This document shows, in pieces, positions 4,024-50,797 of a stretch of DNA of 64,000 nucleotides. The translations under genes were made by a program, and so were the position numbers. How positions within the stretch are numbered: position 1 is the stretch's first letter; each line of letters opens with the position of its first letter. The stretch lies in assembly GCA_026395595.1 (NCBI GenBank), contig JAPLYL010000005.1, forward strand, positions 76,853 through 140,852. The letters are read 5' to 3'. Below the pieces are notes generated by a model. It had not been told where the DNA came from and did not search any database. It saw nothing but the letters and a program-made list of their open reading frames with translations. The DNA is from Candidatus Parcubacteria bacterium (GTDB lineage Bacteria > Patescibacteriota > Minisyncoccia > Phycocordibacterales > CAIJYI01).

Positions 4024-4029
4024 GCCGTA

Positions 4030-4068
4030 ACCCCCATGAGTATAATACACTCATGGGGGTTTCTTTTT
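4030..4068 (+). terminator. rho-independent terminator
   Basis: ACCCCCATGAGT...ACTCATGGGGGT stem plus TTTCTTTTT. Confidence 0.7.
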
Positions 4069-30897: not shown

Positions 30898-30904
30898 AAA
30901 CAAA

Positions 30905-30960
30905 AATCTCCCGATAAATATCGGGAGATTTTTTATTTATTGCCGGTTCGGGGTTGCACC
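30905..30960 (+). terminator. tandem hairpins after thrS
   Basis: ATCTCCCGATA-AAT-ATCGGGAGAT plus T-run, then CCGGTTCGGGGT-TGCA-CCCCGAACCG. Confidence 0.65.
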
Positions 30961-34465: not shown

Positions 34466-34498
34466 AAAAAATCTCCCGCACGGTTAGCGGGAGATTTT
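34466..34498. terminator. hairpin terminator downstream of tRNA-Glu
   Basis: AATCTCCCGC-ACGGTTA-GCGGGAGATT flanked by A6 and T6. Confidence 0.6.
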
Positions 34499-34508
34499 TT
34501 GCGTTTTG

Positions 34509-34580
34509 TGACCCTACAGGGAATCGAACCCTGGTTTTATCCGTGAGAGGGATATGTCCTAGCCGCTAGACGATAGGGCC
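34509..34580 (-). tRNA. tRNA-Glu (anticodon CUC)
   Basis: Cloverleaf derived by hand: acceptor GGCCCTA/TAGGGTC, D-arm GTC-TAGCGGCTAG-GAC, anticodon stem TATCC/GGATA with loop CTCTCAC (U33, CUC, A37), T-arm CAGGG-TTCGATT-CCCTG. Close to E. coli tRNA-Glu. No encoded CCA. Confidence 0.85.
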
Positions 34581-34800
34581 TTATGGCTACATGGTAGAAT
34601 ATAGCATGTTTTGGGGAAAAATCAAAAAATACGTAGTGACTGCTCACACTCCTTAGTAACGCAAAAATCTCTTTAGCGCCGCTACACCAAGGGCAGTCCT
34701 TTCCCTGTCATTCCGCTTCGCTCCATTCCTCCTTAAGGACTGCCCTTGTTTCCGCTTGTCGTGGTAAACGTAGATTCCGGCTCGCGGGCAGGAATGACGG

Positions 34801-36120
34801 TTACCTTACTTTCCACTCTTCGCTTTGTCGTACCAAGAGTTCCGCTTTCCTTTCCGGTTCGGACATTATTTCTTCTATGGTTTGTTCCATACGAATTTTA
34901 TTGGTGCCGGAGCCTTGGGAGCCTTTGACCAGAATAATATCGCCGTCGTCTATAATCTTTTCCAGATATTTTCCGGCTTCTCGGGAAGAATCAAATTGGT
35001 AGATATTGTTTTCATTCATTTTGGCATCAAGCGCGCCGTCCGCGATTCCCCGTCCGCGGATGCCGACCGTTACCAAAATATCACAGAATGAAGCGGTGAT
35101 GGCGCCAATCTTTTTGTGCTCTTCTTTGGAGTACTTGCCAAGTTCAAGCATATCGCCCAAGACCGCAATTTTCTTGCCATAGCATTTGATCTCTTCCAGT
35201 GTTCCGAGCGCTGCGGTTACCGCAACGGGAGAAGCGTTGTAGGAATCATCAATGATAAGCGTTTTTTTGATGCCGGGGATGATTCTCATTCTTCCGGGAG
35301 GCAAAGCGACTTCCGACAACCCTTCCGAGATTTCTACCAAATTTATTCCCGCCGACATGCCCAGAGCGGCGGTTGCGGCTGACGAGTACGCCATGTTATT
35401 TCCCAATGTTCCTTTGATTCTTACCGGCAGGCTTATTTCTCCCGCATCAAGACGGAAGATAACTCCATCGGGGGATTTCCTTTCCAAGTCATCTTCCTTA
35501 TATAAGACAGAAACATGAGAAGCCTTCACATCTGATTCCTCGCTAAAACCATAGGTTTTCGTTTTCCCTTTCCATTTTTCTTTGAGCGCGAGCACTTTCG
35601 GGTCGTCATGATTCAATATCAAAATTCCGTCTTTCTTCAGAGCGCCCACGAGCAAACTTTTTTCCGCAATAACCGCATCAGGAGAAGTGAAGTATTCCAC
35701 ATGCACGGGGACATCGGCAAAACGCGTAACAATGATGGCATCGGGATATATCCATTCCGCCGCTTCTTTCATATCGCCCGGTCGGTCAACGCCGATTTCC
35801 AAAACAAGCCATTCGGGGTATTCATGCTTTTTCAAAACGAGAAAAAGTCCAGCGAAGATATTTTTTGCCCAACCGATAGGATTATTCCACGCATTCTCGC
35901 AGCCGAGAATCGTCAGAGGAATGCCAATGTCAGAGTTGAAACTTTTCTCGCTTTTTCGCACGAAAAATTCGCGGGAAAGCACCGAGTAAGCGGCGTCTTT
36001 CGTAGAGGTCTTTCCGACGCTTCCAATCACCGCAACAATCTTCGGTTTATATTTTCTGAGCACGGCCGTTGCTTCCGCACGGAGAATAACGGCGATTATT
36101 TTTTTTGCAATATTTTTCAT
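34801..36120 (-). CDS. murF: UDP-N-acetylmuramoyl-tripeptide--D-alanyl-D-alanine ligase
   Basis: Mur ligase P-loop GSVGKTSTK. Central and C-terminal Mur ligase domains. Confidence 0.85.
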   Translation of the reverse strand: MKNIAKKIIAVILRAEATAVLRKYKPKIVAVIGSVGKTSTKDAAYSVLSREFFVRKSEKSFNSDIGIPLTILGCENAWNNPIGWAKNIFAGLFLVLKKHEYPEWLVLEIGVDRPGDMKEAAEWIYPDAIIVTRFADVPVHVEYFTSPDAVIAEKSLLVGALKKDGILILNHDDPKVLALKEKWKGKTKTYGFSEESDVKASHVSVLYKEDDLERKSPDGVIFRLDAGEISLPVRIKGTLGNNMAYSSAATAALGMSAGINLVEISEGLSEVALPPGRMRIIPGIKKTLIIDDSYNASPVAVTAALGTLEEIKCYGKKIAVLGDMLELGKYSKEEHKKIGAITASFCDILVTVGIRGRGIADGALDAKMNENNIYQFDSSREAGKYLEKIIDDGDIILVKGSQGSGTNKIRMEQTIEEIMSEPERKAELLVRQSEEWKVR

Positions 36121-40232: not shown

Positions 40233-40289
40233 ATCCTAAAAAACAACCAAACTTATCCACAGGACGAGCTAAAGCTCAGAATAGAGCAA

Positions 40290-40350
40290 CAAGAAAAAAG
40301 CAAAAAGGATAAAGACGTAATCCGTCGTTAATTCCTTTTTGCTTTTTCCT
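40290..40350 (-). terminator. terminator hairpin after the CAP-domain gene
   Basis: GCAAAAAGG...CCTTTTTGC stem with an inner GACG/CGTC stem, then a T-run on the minus strand. Confidence 0.5.
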
Positions 40351-40373
40351 TTTTTCTTCTTGCTTTATTTTTT

Positions 40374-44826: not shown

Positions 44827-44835
44827 TAATATAAA

Positions 44836-44878
44836 AACCCCCGCACTGAATTATTCAGTGCGGGGGTTTGCGGTTTAC
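44836..44878. terminator. bidirectional terminator
   Basis: CCCCCGCACTGAAT-TAT-TCAGTGCGGGGG plus T-rich tail. Confidence 0.7.
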
Positions 44879-47364: not shown

Positions 47365-49368
47365 TTATTTTGCTTTTTCAATTATCCTCACCGCCCCGTT
47401 ATCCGCATCCACTTCCACAAGGTCGCCATCATGGAGAACTTGCGTGGCAATTTTGGTGCCGATGATGCAAGGCTTTTTCATTTCGCGAGCGACGATTGAA
47501 GCGTGGCAAGTCACTCCGCCTTCATCGGTCACGAACGCTGCCGCTTTCTGCATTGCTGGTAAAAAGTTCGGTGTAGTCATCGGTGACACAAGTATGTCTC
47601 CTTCCGCGATACGATTCATATCACTTTGTTTTTTCACTATGCGTGCAATTCCGCATACATTTCCTTTGTAGGCAATCTGCCCAGACACTTCGTTCAATCC
47701 TGCCTCTATTTCCATCTGTTCAAAATAATAGTTTGGGTGAAGAGCAACATACTCTTTGATGCTTCCCAAGCAAGCTTCTTTTCCGTCAATTATAAGAAAA
47801 GCCTGCGTACGCTTACGAAGCAGTTCCTCATTGGGAATTGAATTAAATTCTTCGGGCAATACCGCTCCCGCCAATTCTTCGGACACGTTCGCAAAGTGAG
47901 CAATATTTTTTCTGGCAAAAAGATCATTTTCTGCAAAAAAATCTCCTTCGTTTCTTACTCGAACGGAAATTTCTTTCCCTTCTTCCGGACTTCTTTCGTC
48001 TATTCCGGTATAGAAAAAGATTGTTTCAACAAAAGCCAACTGATAGACCAGATCAATATATGAAGTGCGGTCTTCTACGGAAATAAGATATTCTTTTTTA
48101 TGAAGTTCTTTCAGTTTTTTCGACAATTCTTTAAACTCACCATATAGTGTGTTTAAAAATTCCAGGCCCTTTTTGTTTTCTTCAAGAAGCCGATTCAAAA
48201 ACCATTCAATCGCTTTTTTATGCTCCCAAATCTCAACCACTCCGTCGTTTACAAAATGAGCAACAAAGGGAATGTGCGGATTCTTCCACCCGAACTTCGC
48301 GAGGGCCTGTTCGTTCAATCCTTTCGCCCAAAGTCCTTGTACAAAAAGAGAAGTGTCGCGAGAATAAGCTTTTACAAATTCAATCTTTTCATTTATATGA
48401 TGAGACTCATCAAACGAAAGTGTCAGAGTTGTAATCGGTCGGCTCTGTGTGATAAAAAATCTACCGCCCTCATATGCCCATTCAACATCGCACGGGAATC
48501 CGTAGTGTTTTTCTATTTTCAATACCAGCTCAGAGAGTTCAAGAATCTGCATTTCTGTTAGCGCTTGTTCTTTTCCTTTTTCCCCAAGGTCTTTCCATTC
48601 ATTTGCCTGCCCTGAACTTGCCGAATAAGCACGATAAAGCGCTTTTGATTGTTCGCTAATATTGATATCAATGATTCTCCTCGGTTCCTTTTCCACCACA
48701 TAACTATCGGGAGTAATCTGTCCGGAAACAATGGCCTCCCCCAAACCGAAGCCAGCTTCAATGATAAGCTGATTTCGGTCTTCCGTTACCGGGTGCACGG
48801 AAAAAGCGATACCCGAGATTTCGCTTTCCACCATTTTTTGCACCACTACCGCAACGGATATCTTTTGAGAGTGAAGACCTTGTTCAAAACGATAGAAGAT
48901 TGCACGCGGGGTAAAAAGAGAGGCCCAACACCTCTGTACGTTTGAAAGCAGAGTTTCCTCATCGGTATTGAGAAAACTGTCCAACTGTCCCGCCCATGCG
49001 GCACTACTGCTGTCTTCCGCAGTAGCAGAGGAACGAACCGCAACGAATTCAATACCGAGTTTCTGAAATTCATTTGATATTTCTTGCGCGATATCTTCCG
49101 GCATTTTTGCGCCGAGAATAAGCTGCTGAATTTTTTCAGAAGCGTGCTCTACCGTGTGCATTTCCTGATGATTAACAGTATGCAGAATGGAATCAATTTC
49201 CACATCAAGATCGGTTTCTTTGAGAAATTGGTCAAACGATTCCGCAAGAATAACAAAACCGGAAGGAACTGGAACTCCTGATTGTGCCATCTCTCCAAGG
49301 GAGGCGCCTTTGCCTCCGGCGATAGAGGAATCGTTTTTTGATATTTTTTCAAAAGGTTTTGTGTACAT
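47365..49368 (-). CDS. PEP-synthase-like enzyme: PPDK N-terminal ATP-grasp domain plus PEP-utilising mobile His domain, no C-terminal PEP/pyruvate TIM barrel
   Basis: N-terminal GGKGASLGEM...VPVPSGFV. C-terminal GGVTCHASIVAREMKKPCIIG phosphohistidine domain. The protein ends about 100 aa after it. Confidence 0.7.
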   Translation of the reverse strand: MYTKPFEKISKNDSSIAGGKGASLGEMAQSGVPVPSGFVILAESFDQFLKETDLDVEIDSILHTVNHQEMHTVEHASEKIQQLILGAKMPEDIAQEISNEFQKLGIEFVAVRSSATAEDSSSAAWAGQLDSFLNTDEETLLSNVQRCWASLFTPRAIFYRFEQGLHSQKISVAVVVQKMVESEISGIAFSVHPVTEDRNQLIIEAGFGLGEAIVSGQITPDSYVVEKEPRRIIDINISEQSKALYRAYSASSGQANEWKDLGEKGKEQALTEMQILELSELVLKIEKHYGFPCDVEWAYEGGRFFITQSRPITTLTLSFDESHHINEKIEFVKAYSRDTSLFVQGLWAKGLNEQALAKFGWKNPHIPFVAHFVNDGVVEIWEHKKAIEWFLNRLLEENKKGLEFLNTLYGEFKELSKKLKELHKKEYLISVEDRTSYIDLVYQLAFVETIFFYTGIDERSPEEGKEISVRVRNEGDFFAENDLFARKNIAHFANVSEELAGAVLPEEFNSIPNEELLRKRTQAFLIIDGKEACLGSIKEYVALHPNYYFEQMEIEAGLNEVSGQIAYKGNVCGIARIVKKQSDMNRIAEGDILVSPMTTPNFLPAMQKAAAFVTDEGGVTCHASIVAREMKKPCIIGTKIATQVLHDGDLVEVDADNGAVRIIEKAK

Positions 49369-49372
49369 GTTT

Positions 49373-50797
49373 TTATTGTATCAAATTTCCCGCTATCTGA
49401 TAAATATCTCCCGCACCCATGATAACCACGGCATGATAGTACGGAAGCATTTTGCGCACTATTTTTTCCGTTTCTTTAAGGGATGTTCCATAAGCGATGT
49501 TGGTATCACGAAGCTTCAATATCTCACTCACTAGTTCTAACGAGTTCACTTTTTTTGCCGTCTCATTTCTGCCCGCAACTTCATAAATTTCAGAAAGAAC
49601 GAGATCATCCGCCGTTTTCAAAACCTCGGCAAATTCTTTCAACAGCTTAGATGTTCGGTCTTTTTGATGCGGTTGAAAAACAAACAGTATTTTTTTGTTC
49701 GGATATAATTCTTTTGCCGCTTGTATGGTCGCGCCAACGCCGGCGGGGTGATGGGCATAATCGGAAATGATAATCGTTTTCCCTAATTTTCCGACCTGTT
49801 CAAATCTTCGCCATGTTCCATGAAATTGCGCCAGCGCTTTTTTCGCGCTCGCAGATTTAGCGCCAAGGGTCAGCGCGCAAGCCAGCGCTTCAAGAGCGTT
49901 CATCACATTAAAAATTCCCGGAACTCCAATCTTAAAATCTCCCAAATCTTCACCTTTCCACCAAACCTGAAACACCTGATTTCCTTTTTCATAACGGATG
50001 TTCGCGGCAAAAGCATCAACGTTCTTTTTCTTCAGAGAGCAGGAAATTCTTTTTGCTTTGGTGTTCTTGGAAACTTCAGCAACATTTTTATCATCGGCGT
50101 TATAGATCAAAAATCCGTCTTTCGGCAATTTCCCGACATATTCTAAAAATGCATTTTTTATGTCATCAATATCTTTGAAATAATCCAGATGTTCCGCTTC
50201 TATGTTCGTAAGAATAACCGCGTTCGGATCAAGCTTCAAAAAATGCCGACGATATTCGCAAGCCTCCGCCACAAAAAGTCCCTGATCCCCATACACAGGA
50301 CTACCCTGTGTACACAGGGTAGTCCTGTGTATTTTTGGCAATCTCAAATTCGCATCCCAACCGGGAACTTTTCCTCCAACAATGACCATCGGGTCTTTCT
50401 TGTCCGCTTCCAAAATTTTCCCCAGCATGGCGGTCGTACTGGTCTTCCCATTCGTTCCAGAAACGCCGACACCATACTTCCCTTTCATTATTTCTCCCAA
50501 CGCTTCAACATATTCAAACATCGGAATTCCTTTTTCTTTCGCCAAGGAAAATTCAGGATTATCCGCAGGTACAGCAGAAGAATACACCACCGCCTCCATC
50601 TTTGCCGGCAAGTTTTTTGCATCATGTCTGATGAAGACTTTAATCCCCCTTTTCCTCAAGTCTTTTGCTTGATCAAAATCCGCCCGATCCGAGCCTGACA
50701 CCTTTGATCCCTGCGCTAAAAAATAGCGGGCAATCGCAGAAACCCCGATTCCACCCAAACCGATGAAGTGGATATTTTTTACCGTAAGAAACTCCAT
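49373..50797 (-). CDS. murC: UDP-N-acetylmuramate--L-alanine ligase MurC (contains a 14-aa palindrome-encoded insertion)
   Basis: GLGGIGVSAIA Rossmann motif, GTNGKTSTT P-loop, NIEAEHLDYF. The insertion PKIHRTTLCTQGSP is encoded by a 42-bp perfect palindrome. Confidence 0.9.
   Translation of the reverse strand: MEFLTVKNIHFIGLGGIGVSAIARYFLAQGSKVSGSDRADFDQAKDLRKRGIKVFIRHDAKNLPAKMEAVVYSSAVPADNPEFSLAKEKGIPMFEYVEALGEIMKGKYGVGVSGTNGKTSTTAMLGKILEADKKDPMVIVGGKVPGWDANLRLPKIHRTTLCTQGSPVYGDQGLFVAEACEYRRHFLKLDPNAVILTNIEAEHLDYFKDIDDIKNAFLEYVGKLPKDGFLIYNADDKNVAEVSKNTKAKRISCSLKKKNVDAFAANIRYEKGNQVFQVWWKGEDLGDFKIGVPGIFNVMNALEALACALTLGAKSASAKKALAQFHGTWRRFEQVGKLGKTIIISDYAHHPAGVGATIQAAKELYPNKKILFVFQPHQKDRTSKLLKEFAEVLKTADDLVLSEIYEVAGRNETAKKVNSLELVSEILKLRDTNIAYGTSLKETEKIVRKMLPYYHAVVIMGAGDIYQIAGNLIQ
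50291..50332. repeat. 42-bp perfect palindrome ATACACAGGACTACCCTGTGT|ACACAGGGTAGTCCTGTGTAT inside murC
   Basis: The reverse complement of the left 21-mer equals the right 21-mer exactly. In-frame. Encodes the same peptide on both strands. Confidence 0.9.

Follow-up and report, generated by a model that had tools for sequence, protein, structure and literature searches.

A perfect in-frame palindrome in murC of a Parcubacteria MAG is probably an intragenic copy of a REP/REPIN-like repeat of Patescibacteria

The murC gene of a Parcubacteria/Paceibacterota MAG contains a perfect 42-nt palindrome that preserves the reading frame. This palindrome is likely to be a REP/REPIN-like repeat in an intragenic location, tolerated in a MurC loop that is predicted to be disordered. 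The repeat family is spread through Patescibacteria (CPR) and in several genomes brackets an IS200-like Y1/HUH transposase gene in the layout of a REPtron, as known for REP-associated tyrosine transposases (RAYTs). The coordinates of all features in the analyzed 64-kb stretch of DNA, referred to here as the window, are collected in Table 1.

Table 1 Palindromic elements in the window, their parts and the neighboring genes.
Feature	Coordinates	Strand	Description
tRNA-Glu	34508-34580	-	gene next to the second family copy
Second family copy	34688..34748	.	arms CAAGGGCAGTCCTT (34688-34701) and AAGGACTGCCCTTG (34735-34748), 33-nt spacer
MurF-like gene	34801..36120	-	gene next to the second family copy
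murC	49373..50797	-	UDP-N-acetylmuramate--L-alanine ligase, 474 aa; assigned by Pfam domains and NCBI identity
Whole element	50291..50332	.	42-nt palindrome read as REPIN-like doublet of two inverted units
Arm 1	50291-50311		ATACACAGGACTACCCTGTGT
Arm 2	50312-50332		exact reverse complement of arm 1
Unit 1 (+ strand reading)	50293..50311	.	stem ACACAGG, loop ACTAC, stem CCTGTGT
Conserved core of unit 1	50297-50307		AGGACTACCCT
Unit 2, reverse complement of unit 1	50312..50330	.	stem ACACAGG, loop GTAGT, stem CCTGTGT
Core of unit 2	50316-50326		AGGGTAGTCCT

The element consists of two 21-nt arms that abut without a spacer. The 42-bp perfect palindrome that a previous sequence-only reading had described inside murC was borne out, with arms matching at 21/21 nt, and an arm match with three or fewer mismatches was found in 0/100 dinucleotide-preserving shuffles. 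Both arms are themselves hairpins, 7 bp in the stem and 5 nt in the loop, a feature absent from that reading, and the unit can be written in general form as NNN-AGG-ACTAC-CCT-NNN plus the reverse complement of this sequence. As single-stranded DNA or RNA, the element is predicted to fold alternatively into two small hairpins or one long hairpin. For the hairpin of the whole element, the predicted free energies are -41.7 kcal/mol (z -6.9) for RNA and -23.7 kcal/mol (z -7.8) for DNA. The 42 nt have no coding capacity of their own and contain no transposase, and no target-site duplication was seen at the element. A gathering-threshold Rfam scan of the window assigned the palindrome to no family, its sole match being the tRNA-Glu gene.

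Each of the three Mur-ligase Pfam domains is present in the host ORF, whose product matches a MurC entry at NCBI exactly; the accession of this MurC is MCX6736174.1. Both ends of the palindrome coincide with codon boundaries of murC, and on the minus strand it encodes residues I156-Y169 (IHRTTLCTQGSPVY) between the conserved MurC blocks GGKVPGWDANLRL and FVAEACEY. The peptide named in the sequence-only reading (PKIHRTTLCTQGSP) came from the same stretch but was two residues off from the encoded one. As the length of the insert is a multiple of three, its sequence is stop-free and the ORF is intact on both sides, the insert appears to be translated. An in-frame insertion into a variable MurC loop, as previously proposed, was supported by comparison with the closest solved MurC, 9ir5_A, which has a 16-residue gap here (PKIHRTTLCTQGSPVY), and with minimal-loop CPR MurCs, in which the loop spans 4 residues versus 20 in this MurC. 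The same loop takes many other insertions among CPR. Structural modeling, which the earlier reading had suggested as a check, yielded an otherwise confident AlphaFold model (mean pLDDT 90.5) with a sole low-confidence segment: residues 157-171, the inserted loop, are the only ones below 50. On the basis of this model, the insert occupies a disordered surface loop of MurC.

Palindromes at orthologous positions were drawn from JGI, ENA, Logan and NCBI assemblies; a metagenome scan with generic Mur-ligase peptides contributed only one close relative (L001). For comparison at the DNA level, we used close MurC orthologs with 64-92% amino acid identity, all carrying a palindrome, and left out P0017. 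The identical 42-mer (42/42) occurs in the window and in two further genomes, L081 (NCBI GCA_026395575.1) and L082 (ENA ERZ27249449), although the murC genes of the three share 77-89% nucleotide identity. Between the window and L082, where the element matches at 42/42 positions, overall murC identity is 77% and, among codons for identical amino acids, 45% differ (P ~2e-4). Palindromes of other sequence occupy the same codon position in L083, L084, L001/L189, L086, L087, L088 and L089, with arms of 19-24 nt, spacers of 0-18 nt and the stem triplets CAC, CCG, CTG, CCA or CCT. The core of the murC copies is mostly ACTAC, with ACCGC only in L001/L189.

Despite these sequence changes, pairing is kept. 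Across the orthologs, 97.8% of cells in the long hairpin pair and 12/20 pairs have changed on both sides; slid controls reached 30-48%, and the observed value was attained by 0/500 shuffles. In the sub-hairpins, 98.1% of cells pair, with 4/12 pairs changed on both sides. Copies differ from each other by coordinated multi-site changes, the order of arms and loops is swapped in some orthologs, and the reading frame of the second arm varies, so that one ortholog has TQGSPV where a second has PRAVLG. As this arm is read in different frames, it is the DNA or RNA structure that is kept and not the peptide. The codon position of the element is constant through a MurC clade reaching down to ~65% identity, which indicates an old insertion whose arms have been kept complementary. 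The recent event that had been read from the perfect 21/21 match is at odds with this distribution. Losses also appear to have occurred: L206 (gene P0003) has a single unit at the murC site and is nested among doublet carriers in the tree, so that its singlet is more simply explained as a loss, and L207 and L208, sisters ~89% identical to carriers, have empty sites and an intact murC.

The palindrome is not unique. A search for further copies, as advised in the sequence-only reading, identified a second family member in the window that is intergenic, lying between the MurF-like gene and tRNA-Glu and upstream of the latter. Stem and loop differ between these two copies, and the 64-kb window thus holds no homogeneous REPIN population. 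In L082 and L001, copies that share core and design overlap the last codons of mnmA, with the loop supplying the TAG stop, and L082 has an additional single unit. Across the family, cores are spaced 6 to 35 nt apart.

A genome-collection scan placed 40/116 loci in CPR, among the matches listed. The scan pattern, being an inverted repeat, likewise matches ordinary terminator hairpins in many phyla, and the 11-mer alone is not diagnostic; at least ~70 ordinary hairpins or terminators from other phyla were among the matches. We, therefore, left the raw match count unused and took four-fold symmetry, RAYT adjacency and within-genome similarity as evidence. Four-fold symmetry was present in 55% of CPR elements versus 3% of non-CPR matches, among the matches listed. 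Other CPR genomes contain in-frame copies in LigA, UvrB, RecG, TsaD, PfkB and a class-V aminotransferase, and a second MurC lineage has an in-frame copy at a different site. These copies are read in different frames, with peptides such as RTAL, GPPF or KDRP. In the few loci examined from other CPR genomes, 3-4 near-identical copies per genome pointed to genome-specific master sequences. A search of 2.9 million viral contigs yielded 1 match to the two-core pattern and 0 to the exact arm, which led us to discard a phage origin.

In at least seven CPR loci (L093, L095, L096, L107, L126, L145 and L156), a transposase ORF is enclosed by two copies, which are separated by 714-775 nt. Using tblastn, we detected the RAYT-like gene in at least ten loci, with L175, L187 and L200 beyond the seven bracketed ones. 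The ORF encodes 220-260 aa with an HUH motif (HFHLL) and a tyrosine motif (YIHLNP), and matches Pfam Y1_Tnp at 43 bits (cut-off 23). Its best NCBIfam match is REP_Tyr_transpos, and JGI names one homolog ‘REP element-mobilizing transposase RayT’. A motif beside the RAYT genes prompted a DnaA-box search in the window, which returned weak matches within chance.

According to the favored REP/REPIN-like reading, the ancestor of one Paceibacterota clade would have acquired a copy within codons of the putatively disordered MurC surface loop. IS200/IS605 and RAYT systems suggest by analogy that the copy probably entered while the DNA was replicating, in the form of a single-stranded hairpin. By chance, its length would have been a multiple of three without a stop codon, leaving the essential MurC functional. 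Vertical inheritance would have followed, with occasional halving to a single unit (L206) or loss (L207 and L208). A RAYT presumably mobilized the murC copy, and the host genome presumably has or had such a gene. The complementarity of the arms may have been kept by selection on the hairpin, by hairpin-templated repair or by template switching. Several observations count against this reading. Searches by tblastn with two CPR RAYT-like proteins detected no such gene across the 64-kb window and ~130 kb of murC-clade loci, and the window has only two copies, differing in stem and loop. The RAYT-flanking copies mostly have an ACCGC core, with GCGG where the murC copy has GTAG, as opposed to the mostly ACTAC core of murC copies. 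The RAYT-like protein scores below the curated NCBIfam cut-off (43.9 versus 80 bits). The canonical 5' GTAG head of REPs has no clear place in the element, where GTAG lies in the loop/core (AGG-GTAG-TCCT), and neutral decay of a selfish insert does not predict the long-lasting perfection of a fixed copy.

In a different explanation, the hairpin is a functional cis-element of murC kept by purifying selection. One variant is a 19-21-bp mRNA duplex that might be a suitable RNase III substrate or impede ribosomes, and another is a single-stranded DNA site that may be used in replication. The identical 42-mer in three genomes with murC only 77-89% identical, the compensatory change that holds 97.8% pairing clade-wide and the very stable predicted fold agree with such a function, as does the expectation that an immobile selfish insert would decay. 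We nevertheless judge it unlikely: the same design recurs in unrelated genes, at intergenic sites and around a transposase gene, close sisters lacking the element (L207 and L208) or carrying half of it (L206) have an intact murC, and Rfam offers no match. The explanation is compatible with a REPIN origin followed by exaptation. A broader version, to which we assign a low and only slightly higher probability, is a previously undescribed Patescibacteria REPIN-RAYT system whose copies in essential genes (murC, ligA, uvrB, recG and tsaD) are under purifying selection on the hairpin, the murC copy having been exapted. In that case, the hairpin might adjust the synthesis or decay of MurC as an mRNA structure, or serve a domesticated transposase as a single-stranded DNA site. 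A purely local origin and upkeep, in which template switching made the inverted duplication and re-perfects it with no mobile element, appears distinctly improbable. Template switching is documented to produce perfect stems, one-step multi-base compensatory changes and loop inversion (PMC8794818, PMC5453318); the coordinated multi-site changes and swapped loop order among orthologs resemble such products, and the L206 singlet could be a precursor state. The process leaves unexplained, however, the recurrence of the 11-nt core and four-fold design at unrelated loci and RAYT flanks, and the nesting of L206 among doublet carriers makes a loss the simpler account of its singlet. Template switching fits better as a maintenance mechanism than as an origin.

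Selection on the 14-residue loop as a protein, with palindromy of the DNA incidental, is highly improbable. HRTTLC...TQGSPV is conserved in several orthologs and the MurC loop accepts many other CPR insertions, both of which would suit this explanation, but variation in frame and arm order changes the peptide fully while pairing is kept, the segment is predicted to be disordered and different reading frames are used for the element elsewhere, giving RTAL, GPPF or KDRP in other proteins. Spacer-less perfect palindromes are a known signature of chimeric junctions, and the sequence-only reading had offered an inverted chimeric junction from MDA as its alternative. Such an amplification artefact, or a mis-join during assembly, is almost certainly not the explanation: the identical 42-mer comes from independent samples and pipelines (GCA_026395575.1 and ERZ27249449), related palindromes occupy the same codon in seven further assemblies, and palindromy is confined to 42 nt, with both flanks forming one ORF in one correct orientation, unlike a chimeric junction. 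Additional candidates were rejected. An intrinsic terminator lacks a T-run on the murC sense strand, and a consensus scan called neither strand; for an antisense terminator, TATTTTTGG follows in the window but is absent in L084, L001, L088 and L089. Translational bypassing or an excised intervening sequence conflicts with a frame that is always kept and a stop codon that is never present. A protelomerase, dif or operator site was dismissed because a core spacing of 6 to 35 nt is unfit for a rigid duplex-DNA binding site, and an autonomous IS200/IS605 element because the 42 nt have no tnpA between the hairpin ends.

Among known systems, the closest parallels are the REP/REPIN-RAYT systems of Enterobacteria and Pseudomonas, in which doublets of repetitive extragenic palindromes (REPs) form hairpins (PMC3116915, PMC3337134, PMC3479197). 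REPIN hairpins show compensatory changes, and REP singlets are decayed REPINs (PMC3116915). The CPR family shares with them a short hairpin-forming unit, its inverted pairing into a longer hairpin, compensatory changes and singlets as decay products, as well as, in other CPR genomes, apparent genome-specific master sequences and a single Y1/HUH gene with the repeat on both sides (the REPtron), and copies near gene 3' ends (mnmA with its TAG stop) or between genes, as at 34688-34748. It differs in its host phylum, Patescibacteria/CPR, for which no report of a REP/REPIN-RAYT system was found in the literature searched. Unlike in known REPINs, spacers are tiny (0-18 nt), the doublet measures just 42-64 nt, copy number is apparently low (two in 64 kb), the RAYT-like protein is longer and below the NCBIfam RAYT cut-off, and the murC copy lies inside an essential gene, where it has long been kept. 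Precedents for an intragenic location exist: GTAG/CGTC REPs can sit wholly inside ORFs and be translated, their termini can supply a TAG stop to the upstream ORF, and intragenic copies are biased towards replication and repair genes, with recB of two related species interrupted at approximately the same site (Di Nocera et al. 2013, PMC3733652). That study, which also equated RPE-4 and RPE-6 with CGTC REPs, did not follow an orthologous intragenic copy across a clade with compensatory evolution (PMC3733652). The CPR elements resemble these REPs in being translated inside ORFs, in the TAG stop at mnmA (L082 and L001) and in the hosts ligA, uvrB and recG, but belong to another sequence family and another phylum.

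The resemblance to Rickettsia palindromic elements and other small dispersed palindromes, noted in the sequence-only reading, gained substance from the family copies, the in-frame hosts and the intragenic REPs described above. Ogata et al. are said to have described, in 2000, the elements RPE-1 to RPE-10. RPEs are ~100-150 bp long, occur in Rickettsia and have their own consensus sequences; RAYT association is not their defining feature. As with RPEs, the palindromic repeat lies in frame in protein genes of a reduced genome, the protein is retained and intergenic copies also exist. The murC element is set apart by its 42-nt length, its different core and its host, a Parcubacteria/Paceibacterota MAG, a distinction based on description, with consensus sequences uncompared. 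IS200/IS605 elements have hairpin ends recognized as single-stranded DNA, and a target-site duplication is not expected for them. The Y1_Tnp signature (HUH plus tyrosine) of the associated protein in other CPR genomes is shared with this group, but the murC element lacks a transposase and would be at most non-autonomous. Very small mobile elements that can sit in genes are also known from mitochondria, namely the double-hairpin elements of chytrids and the GC-cluster or ‘byp’ elements of yeast, the latter being skipped by the ribosome. Two adjacent hairpins inside a gene are common to these and the murC element; the mitochondrial elements, however, are organellar and unrelated in sequence, and, unlike byp, the murC insert keeps the frame, is free of stops and appears to be translated.

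To our knowledge, work on REPs and REPINs has dealt almost exclusively with Proteobacteria, and there is still debate over whether these repeats parasitize or benefit their hosts. Our data place a REP-type system, with palindromic doublets around a Y1 gene, in CPR with ~1-Mb genomes, with copies in frame within essential housekeeping proteins, providing a CPR counterpart to the RPE story in Rickettsia. For MAG curation, they show that such perfect palindromes are genuine and not chimeras to be trimmed, and such inserts account for unusual loops of low confidence in models of CPR proteins. At a single codon position, one copy has kept its perfect hairpin while the host gene diverged deeply, making murC a clean natural experiment on whether hairpins are maintained by selection or by template-switch repair. 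If the exaptation reading were true, this copy would represent direct evidence of host-level REPIN function in genomes too small for junk.

A perfect 42-bp palindrome lying in frame in murC had been noted in the sequence-only reading and was confirmed: ATACACAGGACTACCCTGTGT occupies 50291-50311 and directly abuts its exact reverse complement (50312-50332), leaving no spacer. The host ORF (49373..50797, minus strand, 474 aa, three Mur-ligase domains) is identical to NCBI entry MCX6736174.1, which is named UDP-N-acetylmuramate--L-alanine ligase and comes from a Candidatus Parcubacteria MAG. Read in the coding direction, the palindrome runs from codon ATA (I156) to codon TAT (Y169), adding exactly 14 codons. 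Each 21-nt arm also contains a short hairpin of its own (ACACAGG-ACTAC-CCTGTGT in one, ACACAGG-GTAGT-CCTGTGT in the other), and the full hairpin is predicted to be very stable, with folding energies of -41.7 kcal/mol for RNA (z -6.9) and -23.7 kcal/mol for DNA (z -7.8). Allowing up to three mismatches, the arm had no further match in the window and matched in 0 of 100 shuffles.

The palindrome is an insertion in a permissive loop. Alignment to 9ir5_A, the closest solved MurC (E 7e-90), left a single sizeable gap, PKIHRTTLCTQGSPVY, between ...NLRL and GDQGLFVAEACEY, and the loop comprises 20 residues, compared to four in more distant Patescibacteria (CPR) MurCs (GNSQ, GESD, GKGE). An AlphaFold model built with 32 input sequences was confident overall (mean pLDDT 90.5, pTM 0.89), the only segment with pLDDT <50 being the palindrome-encoded stretch at residues 157-171. 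The proposed in-frame insertion was borne out, and it lies in a variable loop. In other CPR lineages this site is occupied by unrelated insertions of 8-42 residues that are not palindromic, and the loop after WDANLR is a general insertion hot spot in CPR. In the MurC alignment, proteins P0023, P0036 and P0109 have unrelated 23-42-residue insertions there, one with a TNTDS direct repeat.

We compared the DNA of 12 close murC orthologs from independent NCBI, ENA, JGI and Logan assemblies (loci denoted by L numbers). The 42-mer was identical in L081 (92% amino acid identity) and L082 (82%), while L083 and L084 carried the same palindrome with a 4-nt or 1-nt loop and, in L084, one mismatch. Palindromes of other sequence occupied the same codon position in L001/L189, L087, L088, L089 and L086, with arms of 20-24 nt, spacers of 1-18 nt and core-adjacent stem triplets CCG, CTG, CCA or CCT versus CAC in the window. 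In a MurC distance tree with the loop masked, the insert was found throughout the clade P0001-P0020, with sequence types intermixed. L206, containing the P0003 gene, retains one unit only (CCGAGG-ACTGC-CCTCGG), and L207 and L208 lack the element despite encoding MurCs that share ~89% identity with the carriers P0017 and P0019. The same or related palindromes in independent assemblies led us to reject the previously considered assembly artefact, and the occurrence of the insert at one codon position throughout the clade contradicts the recent event that the perfect arms had seemed to imply. Downstream of murC, the window contains a PEP-utilising enzyme gene (47365-49368), compared to RNase T and then mnmA in the relatives L081, L082 and L206. 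L089 also contains a perfect intergenic palindrome (1286-1390, 49-nt arms, 7-nt loop) with no sequence relation to the murC element.

Judged from the aligned sequences, the conserved feature of the element is base pairing, not the peptide. Among nine distinct murC elements, 97.8% of cells in the long hairpin were paired, with both sides changed in 12 of 20 pairs; for the two sub-hairpins, the values were 98.1% and 4 of 12. Sliding the partner by 1-3 columns reduced long-hairpin pairing to 30-48%, and the observed values were reached in 0 of 500 shuffles. Because spacer lengths differ, the reading frame of the second arm varies across orthologs, giving TQGSPV in the window versus PRAVLG in L001, and arm order is reversed in L086 and L089. 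A protein-level function of the insert was rejected, as the peptide varies by frame while pairing is kept. Between the window and L082, murC is 77% identical and 45% of codons for identical amino acids differ, yet the palindrome is the same at 42 of 42 positions (P about 2e-4); every other gap-free stretch of 14 codons in the gene contains at least one difference.

The design x-AGG-L-CCT-x' plus its reverse complement is common to all murC elements. Most have the core AGGAC(T/C)(A/G)CCCT / AGGG(C/T)(G/A)GTCCT; L086 and L088 have variant loops (ACTGA, ACTCC). Copies elsewhere (see table), along with the gap relative to 9ir5_A, uphold the original main idea of a small dispersed palindromic element inserted in frame. 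In L082 and L001, the GTAGT/TTAGT loop of a family copy supplies the TAG stop of mnmA; L082 contains an additional single unit, and a run of nine T after its mnmA copy gives a terminator-like look. As a control, the 11-mer occurred once in ~400 kb of unrelated MurC loci (L002-L080). Perfect or near-perfect hairpins with 14-17-nt arms and A-run plus T-run flanks at window positions 4029-4061, 30902-30933, 34466-34500 and 44835-44869 look like bidirectional terminators unrelated to the murC family. At 40251-40369, between two minus-strand ORFs and with several CCAC boxes just upstream, ACTTATCCACA precedes an A-rich inverted repeat (35-nt arms, 86% complementary, 20-nt loop).

Family copies outside the murC site; in-frame hosts were drawn from fetched loci and confirmed by Pfam
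Feature	Locus	Positions	Remarks
Second copy in the window	Window	34688-34748	33-nt spacer; gap between MurF-like gene and tRNA-Glu
mnmA 3'-end copy	L082	13343-13375	Overlaps last codons
mnmA 3'-end copy	L001	6166-6201	Overlaps last codons
In-frame host LigA	L201		
In-frame host UvrB	L183		
In-frame host RecG	L178		
In-frame host TsaD	L168		
In-frame host PfkB kinase	L139		
In-frame host class-V aminotransferase	L152	3404-3443, 4121-4160	Zambryskibacteria; two elements
In-frame host MurC	L184	4383-4411	Distant Parcubacteria lineage (36% identical)

Scanning a species-representative genome collection with the pattern AGGACYRCCCT-N4-20-AGGGYRGTCCT matched at least 116 loci. Among the matches listed, at least 40 loci were from Patescibacteria (Saccharibacteria, Paceibacterota, Yonath-, Vogel-, Kaiser-, Terry- and Zambryskibacteria). 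About 70 of the matches listed belonged to other phyla and looked like ordinary hairpins, 37% with A- or T-run flanks; four-fold stem pairing characterized 3% of these versus 55% of the CPR elements among the matches listed. In-frame copies are common in CPR and are read in different frames, yielding RTAL, GPPF or GLPL peptides. One aminotransferase palindrome has the variant core AGGGTCACCCT/AGGGTGACCCT. The distant MurC carries an independent copy a few residues upstream of the window site (..IVGTKLREL[ EGPPFLEGRSFS ]GGNNFRLG..).

In at least seven CPR loci, two copies 714-775 nt apart bracket a 220-260-aa ORF with the motif GEYYH.YNRG, the HUH motif CLMPNHFHLL and the tyrosine motif YIHLNP. 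The encoded protein, resembling REP-associated tyrosine transposases (RAYTs), scores 43 bits against Pfam Y1_Tnp, above the cut-off of 23; among NCBIfam models it fits REP_Tyr_transpos best, although its score of 43.9 lies below the cut-off of 80. A database search returned >7,000 relatives, those with a source name coming from Patescibacteria-type MAGs, and JGI names one relative RayT. The gene was located by tblastn in ten loci. In most of them, one palindrome precedes the start codon by 20-50 nt and a second lies at the stop codon or a short distance beyond it, which is the layout of a REPtron, a RAYT gene flanked on both sides by REPs. Copies within a genome have genome-specific flanks in common, as in CAYORS01, where two of four copies of the form TGCA-core-TGCRTGCA-core-TGCA flank the transposase gene. 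Neither the window nor the murC-clade loci yielded the gene. Just downstream of its 3' palindrome, the DnaA-box-like AAAGTTATCCACA occurs in L096, L200, L145 and L187, with variants in L175 and L093; its position beside the gene in unrelated CPR genomes may reflect an adjacent origin or conserved promoter.

The most economical reading of the murC palindrome is an intragenic REPIN-like doublet of two inverted hairpin units. It would have inserted once into the disordered MurC loop, in the ancestor of its Paceibacterota clade, and been tolerated owing to its preserved reading frame and lack of stop codons; it would then have been passed on vertically and at times halved or lost. A RAYT presumably moved the murC copy, and we infer that the window genome has or once had such a gene. 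A terminator role was rejected, since a consensus scan did not call the palindrome on either strand and the T-run on the antisense side is not conserved. A phage origin was likewise dropped: 2.9 million viral contigs gave one hit to the two-core pattern and none to the exact arm. The arms may be kept complementary by selection on an RNA or single-stranded DNA hairpin. They may also be maintained by hairpin-templated repair or template switching, which would additionally account for the swapped arm order; perfect stems, multi-base compensatory changes and inverted loops are documented for template switching (PMC8794818, PMC5453318). A murC-specific regulatory hairpin is less likely, since the element is lost in close sisters.

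REPINs, inverted REP doublets forming the replicative unit, have hairpins with compensatory changes, and singlets are their decayed remnants (PMC3116915); the murC elements are likewise inverted doublets with compensatory changes, plus a singlet in L206. The in-frame copies fit published work on intragenic REPs, in which RPE-4 and RPE-6 of Rickettsia belong to the CGTC-type REPs (PMC3733652). The murC element is of a known kind (REP/REPIN, intragenic REP, RPE-like behavior) and entails no new mechanism; the phylum is new. Our literature search found no paper linking REPs, REPINs or RAYTs to Patescibacteria, and a REP/RAYT-type system has apparently not been described before for CPR bacteria. 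The system tends to place copies within essential proteins, and its murC element offers an unusually clean example of long-term hairpin maintenance.
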